A stretch of DNA of 64,000 nt, taken from Centroscyllium fabricii (taxonomy: Eukaryota). Position numbers and translations under genes: made by a program. The first letter of the stretch is position 1, and every line of letters begins with the position of its first letter. The stretch spans positions 72,664,001-72,728,000 of the forward strand of contig JBNRSN020000013.1 of assembly GCA_051313645.2 (NCBI GenBank). The letters run 5' to 3'. This document shows, piece by piece, positions 31,287-54,388 of this stretch. The notes below the pieces were generated by a model. The model had not been told where the DNA came from, did no database searches, and saw only the letters and a program-made list of their open reading frames with translations.

Positions 31287-31588
31287 AAGACAATTCTCTA
31301 CAGAACAAGTATACTATTTTGTCTTTGTACAAGACCTTGGATAAGGCCTCAGTTAGAATACTGTATCCAGTTTTAGCCTCCTGGTGGAAAATATTGAGGC
31401 TTTTGGAAAGGGTTCAGAGAAGGGCCAGAAGATGAATTCCCAGTTTAAAATGCCTTCTTACCTAGATAGGCTCAAAGAGGCAGGTCTGTATATTTTAGAA
31501 AGTACAGACTCTGGTAATTTGACTGAGGTTTACAAAATAATGAAGGGAGTAGATTATGTTTGTTTGGACCAATTATTTCAACTGGATA

Positions 31589-31696
31589 AATGCAAGAAGT
31601 CACACAACATCAGGTTATAGTCCAACAGTTTTATTTTAAATCACAAGCTTCTTGCATTTGACCACCCCAGTCCAACACCGGCACCTCCACATCACG
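31589..31696. mobile_element. Short Penelope-like terminal fragment with internal inversion
   Basis: Matches the termini of the element at 49424-50115; flanked by 12-bp TSD TTCAACTGGATA (31577-31588, 31697-31708). Confidence 0.85.
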
Positions 31697-46790: not shown

Positions 46791-47529
46791 GGCCCAGAAA
46801 TTAGGGCCGCAACACGTGAGTACGGACGGGGTACTCACGCATGCAGCCCTCAGAAGTGCTGTTTCCTGGCGTACACCGCGCATGCGCACAGAACCAGCAC
46901 TTCCGATGCCGGGTCTGGAGGGGGCAGGAGCCCCAGCACGTTGGCCTGCACTGCACAGCTCCTGCTGCGCAGTGCACTTCCGATTTTTTACACAGGTTTG
47001 TATCAGGGTAAGTATTTAAATATTAACGGCTCCTTTTTCGAGTGCAAGGAGTGGATTTCATCAGGTAAGTCTTTATTTTATTCAATTTAAGCATTTTTTT
47101 CTCACAGGTTTTTCATTTGTTTAAACTTTAAAGACAGGTAAGTTGATTTTTAGGCCCATTTAAAACTTTAAATATTTTTTCTAAATTTTTATTTTTTGTT
47201 TAAAATAGCTAATTTATGTTATTGATAGTAATTTTTTTTAATGTGATTTAAAAAAAATGTATTTTAAGGTTTAGTGTGGTTTTGGGGCTCTAGTATTTCA
47301 TAAGTTTGACAGATCTTTCTGTCAAACTTATGAATGGAGCATTCTTTGCTCTGATTGGCTCCCCGCGGACCACGTGATCCCGCGCGGAGCCTCGCACTAA
47401 CTGCGACGTTCAGTAGCCCCAGCGCGGCACGTGGGGCTTGCAGCAGGGCCTAGGATCGAAAGTTCAAGTCCCAGAAATCGAGAACGGCAGGTGCACTCGC
47501 GGCAAGCCTCCGATCCTAATTTCTGGGCC
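46791..47529. mobile_element. Non-autonomous DNA transposon (PIF/Harbinger-like MITE)
   Basis: 15-bp perfect TIRs GGCCCAGAAATTAGG / CCTAATTTCTGGGCC, 3-bp TSD AAT (46788-46790, 47530-47532), GC-rich ends and AT-rich core. Confidence 0.88.
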
Positions 47530-48734
47530 AATAGTTCTTTTTTAAATGCTATAATCTTTTACTTCCAATTCTCTCCTGTCTAGTCTCTCGGGCTTAGACT
47601 GCAGCTGAGAGAATGGGCAGCTGACAATATGCTGCGCATATCTCCAAAGCTGAACTGTGGTTGCCTGATGGGACATATTGAAACGTAATTAGGGCAAGTT
47701 ATTCCAGGCACTGTGAAATCCTGAGACAAACCCCATAAATTTCTATGTTTGCCGAATGTGGCACAACATGCTGCTCAATTACTGCATGTTTGCATAAAAA
47801 GTCCCGAATCAGTTGAAGTGCTAGTTTCTGAGCCGATCCAAAAACATTTGCTTTAAATATAATACAAGGTGAAACCCTTGCTAGTTTGCCCTGTTTATAA
47901 TAGCAACTCACTTTACCTCCATTTAGTGTTATGGGCAGTTTCTCAAGCAAGACTAAAACTCACCTTCTGGTAGAATCCAGAGTGCAAGGGAGCGAGGGAA
48001 GGAAGGAAGCCAGTCAAAAACTAGCATTTATATAGCACCTTTCATGTCTTCAAGATATCCCATTGCGCTTCACATCCAATAATCAGTTTTGAAGTGTAGT
48101 CACTATTATTATCTCGGCAAATCGACTGACAACATAATTGTAACTTAAATCTGAAGTCCATGGCAAAGCACACTAACATGTTACAATGCTGGATATGTAG
48201 CATGGTATATTCATTGGGAGTGACAAAGCAATTTTACATGATTTTGGCAAATGTTTATATTAAGACTTCAGTCCGAGAGTCATCCGTCTGATATAATCCT
48301 GGAACTTTGTGCAACTATACTTTCTTGTACATATTTTATTAATTAAGTTGAAAACCAAATAAATTAGCCCAGTGTAGATACTAACCCTAAACAAGTATGT
48401 TTTAACTGAACAGACAAAGTTGGGAGGAGCACATCTGTACTTGCAATGTTAGCTCTGCTACCCACGAATATGTAATCTGCCTACAACAGCCTTAAGATAT
48501 TTGAGGATAAAATATTTTCCAACTTCATGCAATCTCCAAAAGGGAATAATAGACTGGTAATAGGTTAATTATTCAGAGTGACTGTTGCCAATGAACCGGA
48601 AGCTGCGCAGAAGAATTCTGCGCATAAATGTTAACTTTCATAAGCCGATCGAAACACCAATTCAACTTTTAATTTTTCATTTATTTTCGGCTCAGTTCAG
48701 CAGCATTCATTCAGCAGTGTCCCAATTCCTTCTT

Positions 48735-48972
48735 TTACTAAAATTGAAGTCAATTGGAATCAGGGGGCAAATGCTCCACTGGCTGGAGTCATATCTAGCA
48801 CAACAGAAGATGGTTGTGATTGTTGAGACAAATTATCTCATCCCCAGGACATCGCTGCAGCAGTTCCTCAGGGCAGTGTCCTAGGCCCAATCAACTTCAA
48901 CTGCTTCATCAATGACCTTCCCTCCAACATAAGGTCAGAAGTGGGAATGTTTGCTGGTGATTGCACAGTGTT
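48735..48972 (+). mobile_element. LINE RT remnant hosting the CR1 insertion
   Basis: KLKSIGIRGQMLHWLESYL...PQGSVLGP...FINDLP...degenerate FADD. Confidence 0.75.
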
Positions 48973-49510
48973 ACATAAGAACATAAGAAATAGGAGCAGG
49001 AGTAGGCCAATCGGCCCCTCGAGCCTGCTCCGCCATTCAACAAGATCATGGCTGATCTGATCTTAACCTCAATTTTATTTTTACTCTCCATCCCGCCCAA
49101 ACCCATGTGATCACCCGGGAGAGGCGAAAAACCAGATAAAAAACCCAGTGGCCAATTTGGGAGAAAGAATCTGGAAAATTCCTCTCCGACCCATCTAGAT
49201 CGAAAACTTGTCCAGGAGATCACATGGCCGATCTGAACGTAGCCTCACATCCACTTACCTGCCCGCTCACCATAACCCCTAATTCCCTTTACTTCCAGGA
49301 AACTGTCTATCTCTGTTTTAAATTTATTCAATGTAGTAGCTTCCACAGCTCTCTGGGGCAGCAAATTCCACAGCCCCACCACCCTCTGAGTGAAGACGTT
49401 TCTCCTCATCTCAGTTATGAAATAATGCGGAGGTGCCGGTGTTGGACTGGGGTGGACAAATGCAAAAAGTCACACAACACCAGGTTTAAAGTCCAACGTT
49501 TTATTTTAAA

Positions 49511-49548
49511 TCACAAGCTTTCGGAGCTTTTGCCCCTTCGTCAGGCAA
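49511..49548 (-). ncRNA. Minimal hammerhead ribozyme (inverted copy)
   Basis: Exact reverse complement of 50030-50067. Confidence 0.72.
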
Positions 49549-49606
49549 AGAGAAACTGAACTCAAAGATCACACATGGGGGAGGGGAGAAATCTGATCCA
49601 ACCCAA

Positions 49607-49726
49607 CAGGGTGGCCTTCAAGATACACGACAACGCAAAATCGTCGAGCAGAGGCTGATTGCCAAGTTCTGCACCCATGAGCACGGCCTCAACCGTGATA
49701 TTGGGTTTATGTCACGCTACATGTGA
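49607..49726 (+). pseudogene. C-terminal fragment of a Penelope-type GIY-YIG endonuclease
   Basis: QGGLQDTRQRKIVEQRLIAKFCTHEHGLNRDIGFMSRYM*, matching the R..EQ.LI..F.T...GLN.D.GF pattern of vertebrate PLEs. Confidence 0.8.
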
Positions 49727-50029
49727 CCCCGCCTGGCGTGGAGTCGTCCAGACCCGAACCATCTTCGGCTTTTTTATAAAAAAAGTAATTCTGTGGGATT
49801 TACAGCAGACTAGCGTTAGGCCCTGTGACTGCACCCCTTTGATGTGTCTTTTTTTTTGCTTTTAAAAAAGGAAAAAAAATCACACTGTTTTGCAGCATGT
49901 GACCCCCCTGCAATTGTGCCCCATTGTTCGCAGACTGAGGTGTTAAGGTATGCTAATATGCTTGTGTGCTCTAGGGTTGGATCAGATTTCTCCCCTCCCC
50001 CATGTGTGATCTTTGAGTTCAGTTTCTCT

Positions 50030-50067
50030 TTGCCTGACGAAGGGGCAAAAGCTCCGAAAGCTTGTGA
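50030..50067 (+). ncRNA. Minimal type I hammerhead ribozyme
   Basis: TTGC-CTGACGA-A-GGGGCAAAAGCTCC-GAAA-GC-TT-GTGA: core, stem II GGGGC/GCTCC, palindrome AAGCTT at stem III, wobble-rich stem I. Confidence 0.75.
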
Positions 50068-50614
50068 TTTAAAATAAAACGTTGGACTTTAAACCTGGTG
50101 TTGTGTGACTTTTTGCAGTTATGAAATGGCAGCCCCTTATTTTAAGATTATGCCCCCTAGTCCTAGTTTCACCCACCATTGGGAACATCCTCACCGCATC
50201 CACCCAATCAAGCCCTCTCACAATCTTATATGTTTCAATAAGATCGCCTCTCATTCTTCTGAACTCCAATGAGTAGAGGCCCAATCTACTCAACCTCTTG
50301 TCATATGTCAGCCCCCTCATCCCCGGAATTAACCTAGTGAACCTTCTTTGCACTGCCTCGAGAGCAAGTATGTCCTTTCTTAAATATGGATACCAGAACT
50401 GCATGCAGTATTCCAGGTGTGGTCTCACCAATTCCCTGTACAACTGCAGCAAGACCTCCCTGCTTTTATACTCCATCCCCTTAGCAATAAAAGCCAACAT
50501 TCCATTGGCCTTCCTGACCACCTGCTGCACCTGCATACTAACGTTTTGTGTTTCCTGCACCAGGACTCCCAGATCCTTTTGCATTATCGTTAGGTGGGAC
50601 GTTCCAGGATTTTG

Positions 50615-50757
50615 ACCCAACAGCACTGTGGGAGTACTTTCACCACACGGACTGCATTGCTTCAAGAAGGCGGCTCACCACCACCTTCTCGAGGGCATTT
50701 AGAGATGGACAATAAATGCTGGCCGTGCCAACGACGCCCATATCCCTTGAATAAATA
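50615..50757 (+). mobile_element. LINE 3' end (same family as 34250-34420)
   Basis: CCCAACAGCACTGTGGGAGTAC...TTCAAGAAGGCGGCTCACCACCACC...AATAAATGCTGGCC. Confidence 0.75.
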
Positions 50758-51541
50758 ATGTTTAAAAAACATGCTTGGTAGTTAACTAATTAACCTTAAA
50801 TGAAATAGCTCACCCTAATTTTAGACTCGACAGAACCACCGAGTTCACCAAATCTGTTTGAATGCAGTAGCCGGCCTCTTACCTGATCGGAGACACCAAA
50901 CACATAGCTCTCCATTAGTAAAATAAATGTGGCCATTAGATCCCTCCTTGATCACAGGAAACAGCTATCCACTTTGTAACAGCATGGGACAAACTTTCTT
51001 TTCCAGGTACTAAGAGGCCTGGTGCACCAGATTTCTAGTTATCTCTTGATTGGAGTTTGGTTTAAGGAGATTGAGGAAATCATTTTCATGCACACTGGAA
51101 CTCTATTTAGTGCCTTGCCCAACCAACATTAAGGTTACTGGAACAATTTAATCCCAATATCACCTCTTTATGCTTTTGATTGCCTTTTCCATTCTGTGAT
51201 TATTTTAGCTGGATTTGTTCCCAGCAAGCACAGCAACACTGCTGGTTTTAAAAGTGTGCCTGAAACCAAAGGCAATGAATCTGGGGAAGAAGAAGCAGGA
51301 ATGGATGACATCACTGATGAATCAAAAAGTACCAACAAATAGGATTTAGTACTGGTACCTTTTGTTTATTTTTCCATCTTCTTAAGGTAATTACATGCCA
51401 AAGGCTTGGACAGAAAAGATATGGATCGCATCCATCAGACTTTATTGCAGTTGTATACAATTTGGAACGGTTACATCAAAAATGTTGAGAACAGTTGCTC
51501 CCGATGACAATCCGACAAAGAATTTTGTCAAAATTGATTAT

Positions 51542-52180
51542 TGGCTGGGCTCCCTTTGCCGGGCTGGGGTGGGGTGGGCACCCTGGGCCGAGCTGGGCTC
51601 CGGAAGTGGGCTCTGCTGGGCCGGGCTGGGCTTCGAGTGGGCTCCCTTTGCCAGGCTGGGGTGGGGTGGGCCGGGCTGGGCTCCCTTTGCCGGGCTGGGC
51701 TCTGAGTGCGCTCCCTTTGCCGGGCTGGGCTCCAAGTGCGCTCCCTGGTCCGGGCTGGGCTCCGAGTGCACTCCCTGGTCCGGGCTGGGCTCCGAATGCA
51801 CTCCCTGGTCCGGGCTGGGCTCCGAGTGTGCTCCCTGGTCCGGGCTGGGCTCCGAGTGCGCTCCCTGGTCCGGGCTGGGCTCCGAGTGCACTCCCTGGTC
51901 CGGGCTGGGCTCCGAGTGCGCTCCCTGGTCCGGGCTGGGCTCCGAGTGCACTCCCTGGTCCGGGCTGGGCTCCGAGTGCGCTCCCTGGTCTGGGCTGGGC
52001 TCCGAGTGTGCTCTCTGGTCCAGGCTGGGCTCCAAGTGGGCTCCACTGAGCTGGGCTGGGCTGGGCTCAGAGTGGGTTCCCTTTGCCGGGCTGGGGTGCG
52101 GTGGGCTCCCTGGGCTGGACTCCAAGTGGGCTCCGCTGGGCCGGGCTGGGCTCCAAGTGGGCTCCGCCGGCCCGGGCTGC
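51542..52180. repeat. 30-bp GC-rich minisatellite built on GGGCT pentamers
   Basis: About 10 near-perfect units cgggctgggctccgagtgcrctccctggtc at 51721-52020, with degenerate flanks. Confidence 0.95.
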
Positions 52181-52279
52181 CTACCAGGTCCTACATCTTT
52201 CTGAACCGGCCCAGCTGGCTCTGAACGGTGTCCAGCGGGGCTGCAGAGAGTCTCCATCTCCCTCTCCTCACATACATAC

Positions 52280-52397
52280 AGCCCATGTACATAAAAATAA
52301 AATGGCCACCATCAACCTGCATCGAAAGGCCACCTGTCTATAAAGGCCACTTTTTGCCTTTCCTGTGAGTGGCCTTTCTGTACAGGTTTGACTGTAT
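52280..52397. mobile_element. One end of a Tc1/mariner-pogo-like DNA transposon
   Basis: Terminus ...ACAGGTTTGACTG|TA (reverse complement TA|CAGTCAAACCTGT) with repeated subterminal AAAGGCCAC motifs; partner TIR not found. Confidence 0.55.
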
Positions 52398-52990
52398 CTC
52401 AGCCTTGAATATACTCAATGACTCAGCATCCACAGCCCTTTCGGGTAGAGAATTCTAACGATTCACAACCCTCTGAGTGAAGAAATTGCTCATCTTAGTC
52501 TTAATTGGCCGACCCCTTATCCTAAGACTATGTCCCCTAGTTCTAGACTCTCCAGCCAGGGAAAACAACTTTTCAGCATCTACCCTGTCAATCCCCTCAC
52601 ATTTTTCTATGCTTCAATGAAATCACCTCTCATTCTTCTAAACTCCAGAGAGAGCATAGGCCCAATCTACTCAATCTGTCTTCATAGGACAACCCTCTCA
52701 TCCCACAAATCAATCTACTGAACCCTTGTTGCACCGCCTCAAAGGCATGTATGTCCTTTCTCAGATAAGGAGACCAAAACTGTGCACAGTACTCCAGGTG
52801 TAGACTCGCCAAAGCCCTGTACAATTGTAGCAAGACTTCCCTACTCTTGTACTCCAACCCCCTTGCAGTAAAAGCCAACATGCCATTTGCCTTCCTAATT
52901 CCTTGCTGTACCTGCATGCTAACTTTGTGTGTTTCCTGTACGAGGACACTTAAATCTCTCTGAACACCAATATTTAACAGTTTTTCACTA

Positions 52991-54388
52991 TGTAGCCCTG
53001 TGAATAATTGGGCTATTAAGGGGGTGGACTTTAGGACCTGGGAGACACAGACACAAACAGCCCAGAGCCAGCAGCTGTTGATAATTAAAACAGGAGTGCA
53101 AAAAGGGGTCACATGACCCCAGGAGAGGAGTATAAAACAGGCAGTTTAAGTTGGAGTCTGCCAGAGGAGGTTGGAGTCTGGAGTCTGGACAGGAGAGAAG
53201 AAGGAGCTTTTTGGAGCGTGGGCTGAAGGAGAGAAGGAGCTTTTTAGAGCGTGGGCTGGAAAAAAGGAGCTTTTTGGAGTCTGGGTAAGGGAGCAGAGCT
53301 GGAAGCTGTGAGTAGCAGTCCTCGGATAGAGGGCTGTGTAATGCTCAGCAGTTTTCCTAAGCCGTGAGTAGCAGTCGTCGGATAGAGGGCTGTGTAATGC
53401 TCAGCAGTCTTCCTGGAGCCACTGGGCTACCTCTGAGTGGCACAGAGCGAACCCCAGAGCGGCAGAAGCCCGGAGAGGCAGTATACCATTGAGAGAGAAG
53501 GGGGAAGGAGTTGGAGAGCAGTGGACTCCTTTAAGCCATAACTGGTCTTGGGAATATGCTTTAACGAGATTATAGAGGGCTTTGAACCAAAGTTTAATAC
53601 CGATAACTCGTGAGAAGATGTTCGACTAGTTAACAGAGTTTAAGCAGTGATGTGGGCTGACTGAGGCTGTAAAATACTCGTGGAGCTTGGGGCAGTAGCT
53701 TGGTTCAGAATATTCCTGAGCGGAATGAACCATTATAACCAGATAGCGTTTTGAGTGACCTGGAGACAGCTCAAAAACTCCTCTGGCTACGCTGGATTTA
53801 CTCAACACTTCGTGAAAGGCCAAGCCGCTGATTGTTTGTTCCTGGTCCAAGATCTATTGATTGTTTATTGCTCTAATGAGAGTGAAGAACCTTTACGTTT
53901 GAGTTACAAAGTCTGCAAGCAACTTAACAGGCCTGCTACGCTTTTCCATTTTGTAAATTCAATCTGCCGGCTTAGAGTATAGTTGATAGTAATGGGCACA
54001 AGGTGCGTGAGTTCATTGATGTAACGTAAAGTCTAAATTATTTTAACTCATTGACTGAAAAGAGATTAAGGTAACTGAATGCTGTAACTCTAAATTCTTG
54101 GTTAAAGACAGAAAGTTAGAAATGTGCTAAGGTTTACTTTGACTGTTGAATATTTTACCTTGCAAATAAATTTACAAGTTACTGTTTTAATTGTTAAAAT
54201 AGTTTCTGAGTGTTAATTGTTGTAGAGGTTAATGTTTAGTCTTGAAAGTATGAGACTGAAGAGTGTTTGCTCATTGTATTCAAATTTACTGGAATTGTAG
54301 TTATAAAGGATCCAAGATTCACTAACGAAAGATGGAGTTAAAGAACTCAGGGCCCCCTCAATTCACGGAACGGATTGACTGGGCTACA
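52991..54388 (+). mobile_element. Solo LTR (1398 bp), probably Gypsy-type
   Basis: TGTAGCCC...GGGCTACA inverted termini, 4-bp TSD ACTA (52987-52990, 54389-54392), TATAAAA ~53130, AATAAA ~54165; host CR1 rejoins across it. Confidence 0.9.

Follow-up and report, generated by a model that had tools for sequence, protein, structure and literature searches.

The stretch of DNA analysed here, referred to as the window, comprises 64,000 nucleotides of the Centroscyllium fabricii genome. Between its positions 49412 and 50127, a truncated Penelope-like element (PLE) has inserted into a host LINE, whose reading frame it interrupts. From its protein motifs we take the host to be a LINE of CR1 type. The features of the locus, with window positions and strand, are as follows.

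48972..49423, minus strand: presumed CR1-type host LINE, 3' part, left of the insertion; 93-96% identical to 7 paralogues
49412..49423, no strand: left copy of the target-site duplication, 12 bp; single copy in 7/7 host paralogues
49424..49460, minus strand: unpaired PLE tail, 37 bp, pseudo-LTR (pLTR) positions 145-181; a tail as defined in the available text of PMC8557442 and PMC11167929
49461..49604, minus strand: left inverted pLTR arm, tailed, pLTR positions 1-144, from the arm alignment
49511..49548, minus strand: left minimal type-I hammerhead motif, from motif comparison; predicted cut between 49515 and 49514
49605..49606, no strand: two additional bases between the inner ends of the arms, from the joint alignment
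49607..49726, plus strand: final 39 codons, with stop, of the RT+GIY-YIG ORF, from the match to the parent ORF
49727..49973, plus strand: 3' untranslated region of the element, 247 bp; 98.8% identical to the full-length reference across 49607-50120
49974..50117, plus strand: right pLTR arm, untailed, pLTR positions 1-144; its final two bases also belong to the duplication
50016..50038, plus strand: pLTR positions 43-65, where the 5' ends of sister copies pile up (21/95 arm ends)
50030..50067, plus strand: right minimal type-I hammerhead motif; C-U-U triplet at 50061-50063, predicted cut after 50063, where sister-copy ends peak
50116..50127, no strand: right copy of the target-site duplication, 12 bp, direct repeat
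50116..50583, minus strand: presumed CR1-type host LINE, RT-coding part, right of the insertion, 5'-truncated; 97-98% identical to paralogues

Anatomy of the insertion

An earlier note, made from the sequence alone, had described a truncated Penelope-like insertion with an inverted pLTR, and this description stands: the arms, the duplication, the ORF end and the parent element were all found. The inverted repeat is as perfect as claimed, the arms being reverse-complement identical at 144/144 positions and not extendable. The 12-bp duplication reported there is a direct repeat of exactly that length, and it is a true target duplication because 7/7 host-LINE paralogues read through the 12-mer once, uninterrupted; each outer end of the element has two bases in common with it. 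Both arms carry the opposed putative hammerheads, with the motif CTGACGA...GAAAGCTT. The 39-aa GIY-YIG C-terminus said to lie between the arms (frame 49607-49723 plus stop) corresponds to the C-terminus of the parent ORF at 98.8% DNA identity, with one Arg-to-Cys change relative to most copies, and these last 39 codons are all that is retained of the RT+GIY-YIG ORF. Two features were absent from the note, namely the 37-bp tail of the left arm and the LINE host. In the parent element, the tail ends immediately 5' of the ORF start codon. We infer that the end of the tail marks the downstream start site of reverse transcription and the outer end of the right arm the upstream one. The additional two bases where the arms join may reflect a short slip that duplicated their neighbours.

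Of the ORFs of at least 150 aa around the locus, those identifiable by eye represent LINE fragments or simple repeats, and when public contigs of 4 runs were aligned to the left flank, the matches were swamped by repeat copies. A GC-rich minisatellite (30-bp unit, ~13 copies, 51617-51999) lies 1.5 kb to the right of the insertion. At 31583-31692 the window also holds a short and older stub, likewise head-to-head, from a related PLE subfamily (untailed arm 85-152, tailed arm 136-180), which has its own duplication.

The parent element and its family

The parent expected by the earlier note is present in the genome as a 3.1-kb RT+GIY-YIG Penelope-like element, of which an intact copy (L041) encodes 888 aa with no stop. 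Its RT domain matches RVT_1 above the cut-off (E 8.6e-10), its last 129 aa match GIY-YIG slightly below the Pfam cut-off of 22.6 (E 2.6e-4, 21.7 bits), and the motifs YIDD, DKG and VVY..YIG are present; searched against PDB, the protein has no match at E<=0.01. With a single ORF in which RT is followed by a C-terminal GIY-YIG domain, the parent and, with it, the window copy would be classed by sequence as EN+ Penelope-like elements. The RT-EN linker carries CX4CXXC at residue 750, in agreement with the CX2-5CxxC motif that marks the Neptune/Nematis clades in the available text of PMC8557442, which suggests that the family of the window copy is of Neptune/Nematis type. Three loci (L039, L038 and L047) are partial tandems with a period of ~3.1 kb, the arrangement by which PLE pLTRs are recognised. 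On contig C822 (192547332-192562744, L281-L285), at least 5 full-length units stand head-to-tail with a 3,095-bp period; all have one stem II change in common, and the ORF is broken after 168 codons in both units checked.

A search of the 7.2-Gb genome with the window element returned 1,997 candidates, and 41 of the 45 matches listed are 98-100% identical over most of the query. A 30-nt pattern from the pLTR end has 9,336 exact matches in the genome and a 54-nt ribozyme pattern 3,805, the reversed controls giving 0 in both cases. Identity as a non-LTR retrozyme, that is, a short non-coding hammerhead unit in head-to-tail tandem copies, was rejected, given the head-to-head layout, the coding remnant and the separate joint and duplication of each insertion.

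The layout of the window copy is common in this family. The first 100 ribozyme matches on contig C1 come from 76 sites, all of which we sampled: at 42 of them the matched copy lies in a head-to-head insertion with a duplication, and the remaining 34 carry single arms or more complicated arrangements, making the window layout the majority outcome for the family. The first 100 exact hammerhead matches on C1 include 24 head-to-head pairs and 0 tail-to-tail or tandem pairs within 7 kb. Dual minimal hammerheads on opposite strands, 100-700 bp apart, have already been published (PMC4209133), as has an inverted copy with a one-sided tail (PMC8557442 and PMC3846280, in the parts available); the layout and the opposed hammerheads of the window copy are of an already known kind. 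The insertion is real but ordinary: truncated copies of this kind of retrotransposon, itself already known, number in the thousands in the genome.

Neither is it exceptional in age. The earlier note had judged it very recent from the identity of its arms, a reasoning that fails since identical arms are found in 29/56 sister inverted copies and so are not distinctive; they occur in 19/43 inverted copies having at least 100 comparable bases. The long arm of the window copy differs from the subfamily majority at 2/497 positions (0.4%), and the subfamily mean is 0.22% (57/26,274 positions, 21 copies). By this comparison the copy appears not unusually young, that is, no younger than the average of its subfamily. 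The family itself is young relative to the host LINE.

One tailed and one untailed arm per insertion

In every distinct inverted insertion whose duplication could be detected (108/108), one arm is tailed and the other is not. These insertions comprise 56 copies (13 best hits and a positional sample of 43 on C1), in 34 of which the duplication is 12 bp long, and 52 further copies, where it is 12-13 bp in 41. Seven copies of one insertion carried inside another repeat were counted once, the inner joint of L009 was set by hand, L108 stands outside the asymmetry count, and 19 pairings without a duplication (8 untailed/untailed, 1 tailed/tailed and 10 mixed) were set aside from the second sample. 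Apparent exceptions were rejected on inspection: L138 and L195 each prove to be a tailed arm that has lost an internal segment, L175 combines a tailed arm with a tandem piece, and L198 and L246 are pairings of separate insertions, as are L146 and L153, which were judged from the alignment table only.

The inner ends of the two arms lie no more than 30 nt apart in 25/43 sampled copies, compared with a permutation mean of 5.6 (0/20,000 shuffles as high), part of this coincidence coming from short copies that end at the pile-up at pLTR 43-65. Among copies with a long arm, the ends lie within 45 nt of each other in 15/39, where a mean of 3.3 is expected. In 18/43 sampled copies, the arms differ by more than 30 nt, and do so in both directions (8 and 10). 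When the difference is 10-45 nt, the untailed arm reaches further in 10/11 (p=0.012), an asymmetry noticed post hoc; among the 25 strongly unequal copies, the untailed arm is the longer in 14 and the tailed arm in 11. Subfamily alleles agree between the arms at 91/99 informative sites, and private changes are found in both arms at 6 sites and in one arm at 67.

If the duplication is set to 12 bp throughout, the match between primer end and template averages 1.5 nt (68 ends), 31/68 having a match of at least 2, where the chance rate of 0.09 is an assumption and a site preference of the endonuclease could mimic such matches. Target sites of PLE copies are 70% AT. Both end types are also present among single-arm copies. 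Within L051-L126, a duplication (cut-off 9 bp) accompanies 11/17 untailed and 4/17 tailed single-arm copies, which hints at a different resolution of the two start sites in cases where a single end is primed.

One such insertion has been multiplied by other means. At least 528 copies of a 179-bp tailed/untailed PLE palindrome with a single duplication lie inside a carrier element of ~720 bp, with which they were co-amplified (L137, L138, L139, L143, L145, L160 and L161 on C1, 23-56 Mb); some copies show later internal deletions. The carrier has terminal inverted repeats and TA flanks, for which reason its reading as an LTR was rejected, and is presumably MITE-like, of Tc1/mariner type.

Copy ends mark a candidate RNA start and the predicted cut

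The 5' ends of 95 arms were placed in another positional sample, this one selected downstream of the ribozyme. Twenty-one of these fall at pLTR 43-65, a density of 0.9 per base as against 0.07-0.2 in most other intervals, making this interval a candidate for the start of the element RNA. The left edge of the pile-up sits on TCAGT, which we take to be initiator-like and which is also splice-acceptor-like (YAG); no spliced copies were seen in the sister-copy alignments. Genome-wide, an estimated 92 copies end at position 91, the first base past the predicted cut, compared with 34, 33, 45 and 9 at control positions 81, 88, 93 and 103, a peak of ~2.5-fold, the counts at these five positions each being corrected by classifying 20-30 loci. 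The peak, which amounts to ~1% of the 9,336 ends and to which local sequence effects on joining could contribute, suggests that at the family level the ribozyme probably cleaves a minority of RNAs in vivo. Both arms of the window copy extend past the RNA-start and cut points and would therefore have been primed at the downstream pLTR of the RNA.

At L175 (1438-1640), the tailed arm ends exactly at the predicted cut and a second copy sets in close to the upstream start site, which would be in keeping with a backward jump of the RT after it ran off a cut RNA.

The hammerhead motif and its predicted folding

Curated models, to which the earlier note had looked for confirmation of the hammerheads, do not recognise them: an Rfam scan of window 47000-53000 at E<=5 returned no hammerhead and four unrelated weak matches. 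Because no curated Rfam model matched, identification of the ribozymes relies on comparing the motif with the minimal descriptor published for PLE hammerheads, to which the core, stem I, stem II and the palindromic stem III of the window motif all conform. Common to the motif and the minimal hammerheads of metazoan PLE pLTRs (PMC4209133) are the CUGANGA core, an extra base before stem II, a G-C first pair in stem II, a short stem I and a loopless palindromic stem III. Stem II, however, has 5 bp rather than the 7-8 of the Schistosoma examples (PMC4209133), and the window subfamily differs from the hammerheads of that study in having two G-U pairs in stem I, where a sister subfamily has four Watson-Crick pairs, and a predicted competing hairpin. 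One pair of stem II is A-U or G-U among copies. In 310 motif-like matches, which include a few unrelated repeats and in which copy relatedness inflates the variant counts, variants of stems I and II mostly keep pairing.

For the isolated motif of the window subfamily, in which the competing hairpin is predicted, the active stems have a predicted probability of 2-4%, versus 99% in the sister subfamily. When 60 downstream bases are added, the prediction is 0-18% in all four variants, and folding in vivo therefore likely needs protein, as reported for the Poseidon element PAc of Anolis carolinensis. Hammerhead dimer cleavage is described by Lunse et al., as cited in the available text of PMC6765202. 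The two window motifs are on opposite strands, which leaves no dimerisation in cis, and the predicted energies are -84.8 kcal/mol for the antisense duplex across the motif and -4.3 for the dimer helix. Owing to the head-to-head layout, the antisense arm would be transcribed ahead of the sense motif from either side. The 144-bp hairpin that the earlier note had proposed for read-through RNA is thus borne out in prediction, the whole 144 bp being predicted to pair, whereas self-cleavage loses its standing as a live alternative, with the antisense arm made first from either strand and the motif predicted to be misfolded alone.

Discussion

The window copy is a truncated, non-coding PLE insertion, and its opposed arms, to judge by completed insertions in a single assembly, are likely the products of two target-primed reverse transcription events on one RNA, one at each end of a 12-nt staggered cut. 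The endonuclease would nick both strands 12 nt apart and leave two 3' ends, of which one would prime where the tail ends and the second ~37-40 nt upstream, each event being aided by 0-3 matching bases. From both primers, synthesis would proceed along the same RNA in the direction of its 5' end, after which a few matching or added bases would serve to join the two cDNA ends. In the window copy, the tailed cDNA would have stopped after ~180 nt and the untailed cDNA after ~510 nt. The lead of the untailed arm in 10/11 nearly equal copies is as expected if that arm leads on a shared RNA. Because each arm contains the pLTR, the two hammerheads would be a by-product, locked in the 144-bp duplex in any read-through RNA.

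In LINE-1 twin priming, two target ends prime on one RNA and produce an inverted segment, the second primer starting far inside the RNA so that the segments barely overlap. The two target ends on one RNA and the inverted segment would be alike here. The two starts, however, lie no more than 40 nt apart at the RNA's 3' end, and the same sequence is therefore copied twice, unlike in LINE-1.

Two alternatives for the origin of the arms were weighed. The first, which we consider unlikely, is that each cut end used a separate RNA, the first-primed end receiving one start site and the second the other. This would account for the one-tail rule and for unequal arms in both directions, and a dimeric protein could hold both RNAs; nor do shared subfamily alleles tell apart a single RNA molecule and two RNAs from the same source. 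However, it leaves unexplained the inner ends that coincide deep in the ORF (-965/-973, -869/-869, -1131/-1159), and no clearly mixed-subfamily arms were seen in 56 copies, although the subfamilies may have differed in their active period.

Ranking below it, and likewise improbable, is fold-back self-priming, in which the cDNA started at the tail folds back and copies itself, the second arm stopping before the tail. Such a process also yields one tail per insertion; many copies form palindromes that are almost perfect, 1-6 bases matching at their centre, and PMC3846280, in the text available, argues from such palindromes for self-priming on an antisense template. Yet under fold-back the untailed arm should never outreach the tailed one, which it does in 14/25 strongly unequal copies, in 10/11 nearly equal copies and, by 370 nt, in the window copy. 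Strongly unequal arms in both directions therefore cannot come from simple fold-back, although later central deletions could rescue the model. Moreover, since untailed single-arm copies with duplications exist (11/17), the untailed end is a start site in its own right.

That the copy is very young, transcribed and possessed of its own function, with an RNA that toggles between cleaving itself and forming a long hairpin, is very improbable. In its favour, the arms are identical, both catalytic cores are intact and a transcript starting inside the spacer would hold the sense motif only. Against it, the layout is the commonest insertion outcome (42/76 sampled sites), in read-through RNA the sense motif always comes after the antisense arm, misfolding is predicted for this subfamily's motif even in isolation (2-4% vs 99% for the sister subfamily), and the copy is not younger than average.

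Related elements offer close parallels. Complex insertions of endonuclease-bearing PLEs, among them Adineta Pen2/Pen2a, consist like the window copy of a 5'-truncated copy and an adjacent inverted copy, with a pLTR on either side, a one-sided tail of 30-40 bp and a short duplication (PMC8557442 and PMC3846280, in the parts available), which is 9-10 bp in Pen2/Pen2a (PMC3846280). In line with double priming, the available text of PMC11167929 reports for PAc that both strands are nicked and extended in vitro, that two RT start sites bound the tail and that the protein is a predicted dimer. As here, the start sites lie ~35-40 nt apart and define the tail, the targets are AT-rich, and the hammerhead lies upstream of the tail. 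Different from PAc in that text are the CX4CXXC linker motif of Neptune/Nematis type, the ORF, which starts directly after the tail here and inside the ribozyme in PAc, the strict pairing of the start sites in each insertion, and the short primer matches and cut-site peak, which were not found in the PAc study. The main text of PMC11167929, as available, does not link the two start sites to the two ends of one insertion. In the freely accessible literature searched, we found no published twin-priming account of PLE inversions; Figs S1B and S2 of PMC11167929 (cut versus start sites) may bear on novelty. Further literature is found in the available part of bioRxiv 10.64898/2026.07.22.740005.

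More broadly, and with even confidence, we propose that the genome may be read as a fossil record of PLE integration, in which a dimeric RT-endonuclease would make a fixed 12-nt staggered cut, the ends would always be assigned to different start sites on one RNA and the polymerases would travel in convoy, with copy ends also marking the RNA start (pLTR 43-65) and the hammerhead cut (91), the latter as evidence of germline cleavage. A single locus is of little weight here; it is the family statistics that matter, PLE integration being still only outlined. These counts turn an 'optional tail' into a strict rule that is directly testable in the existing in vitro system, and the mapping of copy ends offers a route to the RNA start and the ribozyme cut from DNA alone. 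If transcribed, these thousands of inverted copies could give rise to double-stranded RNA.

The most abundant young subfamily, that of window 50030-50067, carries the stem I changes predicted to favour the inactive hairpin, and the sister subfamily (L154, L164) is predicted to fold correctly; the two form a natural pair for the question of cleavage versus spread. A different repeat family contributes further hammerhead-like cores (CTGAAGA/CTGATGA with a CGTT palindrome), seen at window 44703 on the plus strand and at L047, L048 and L138.
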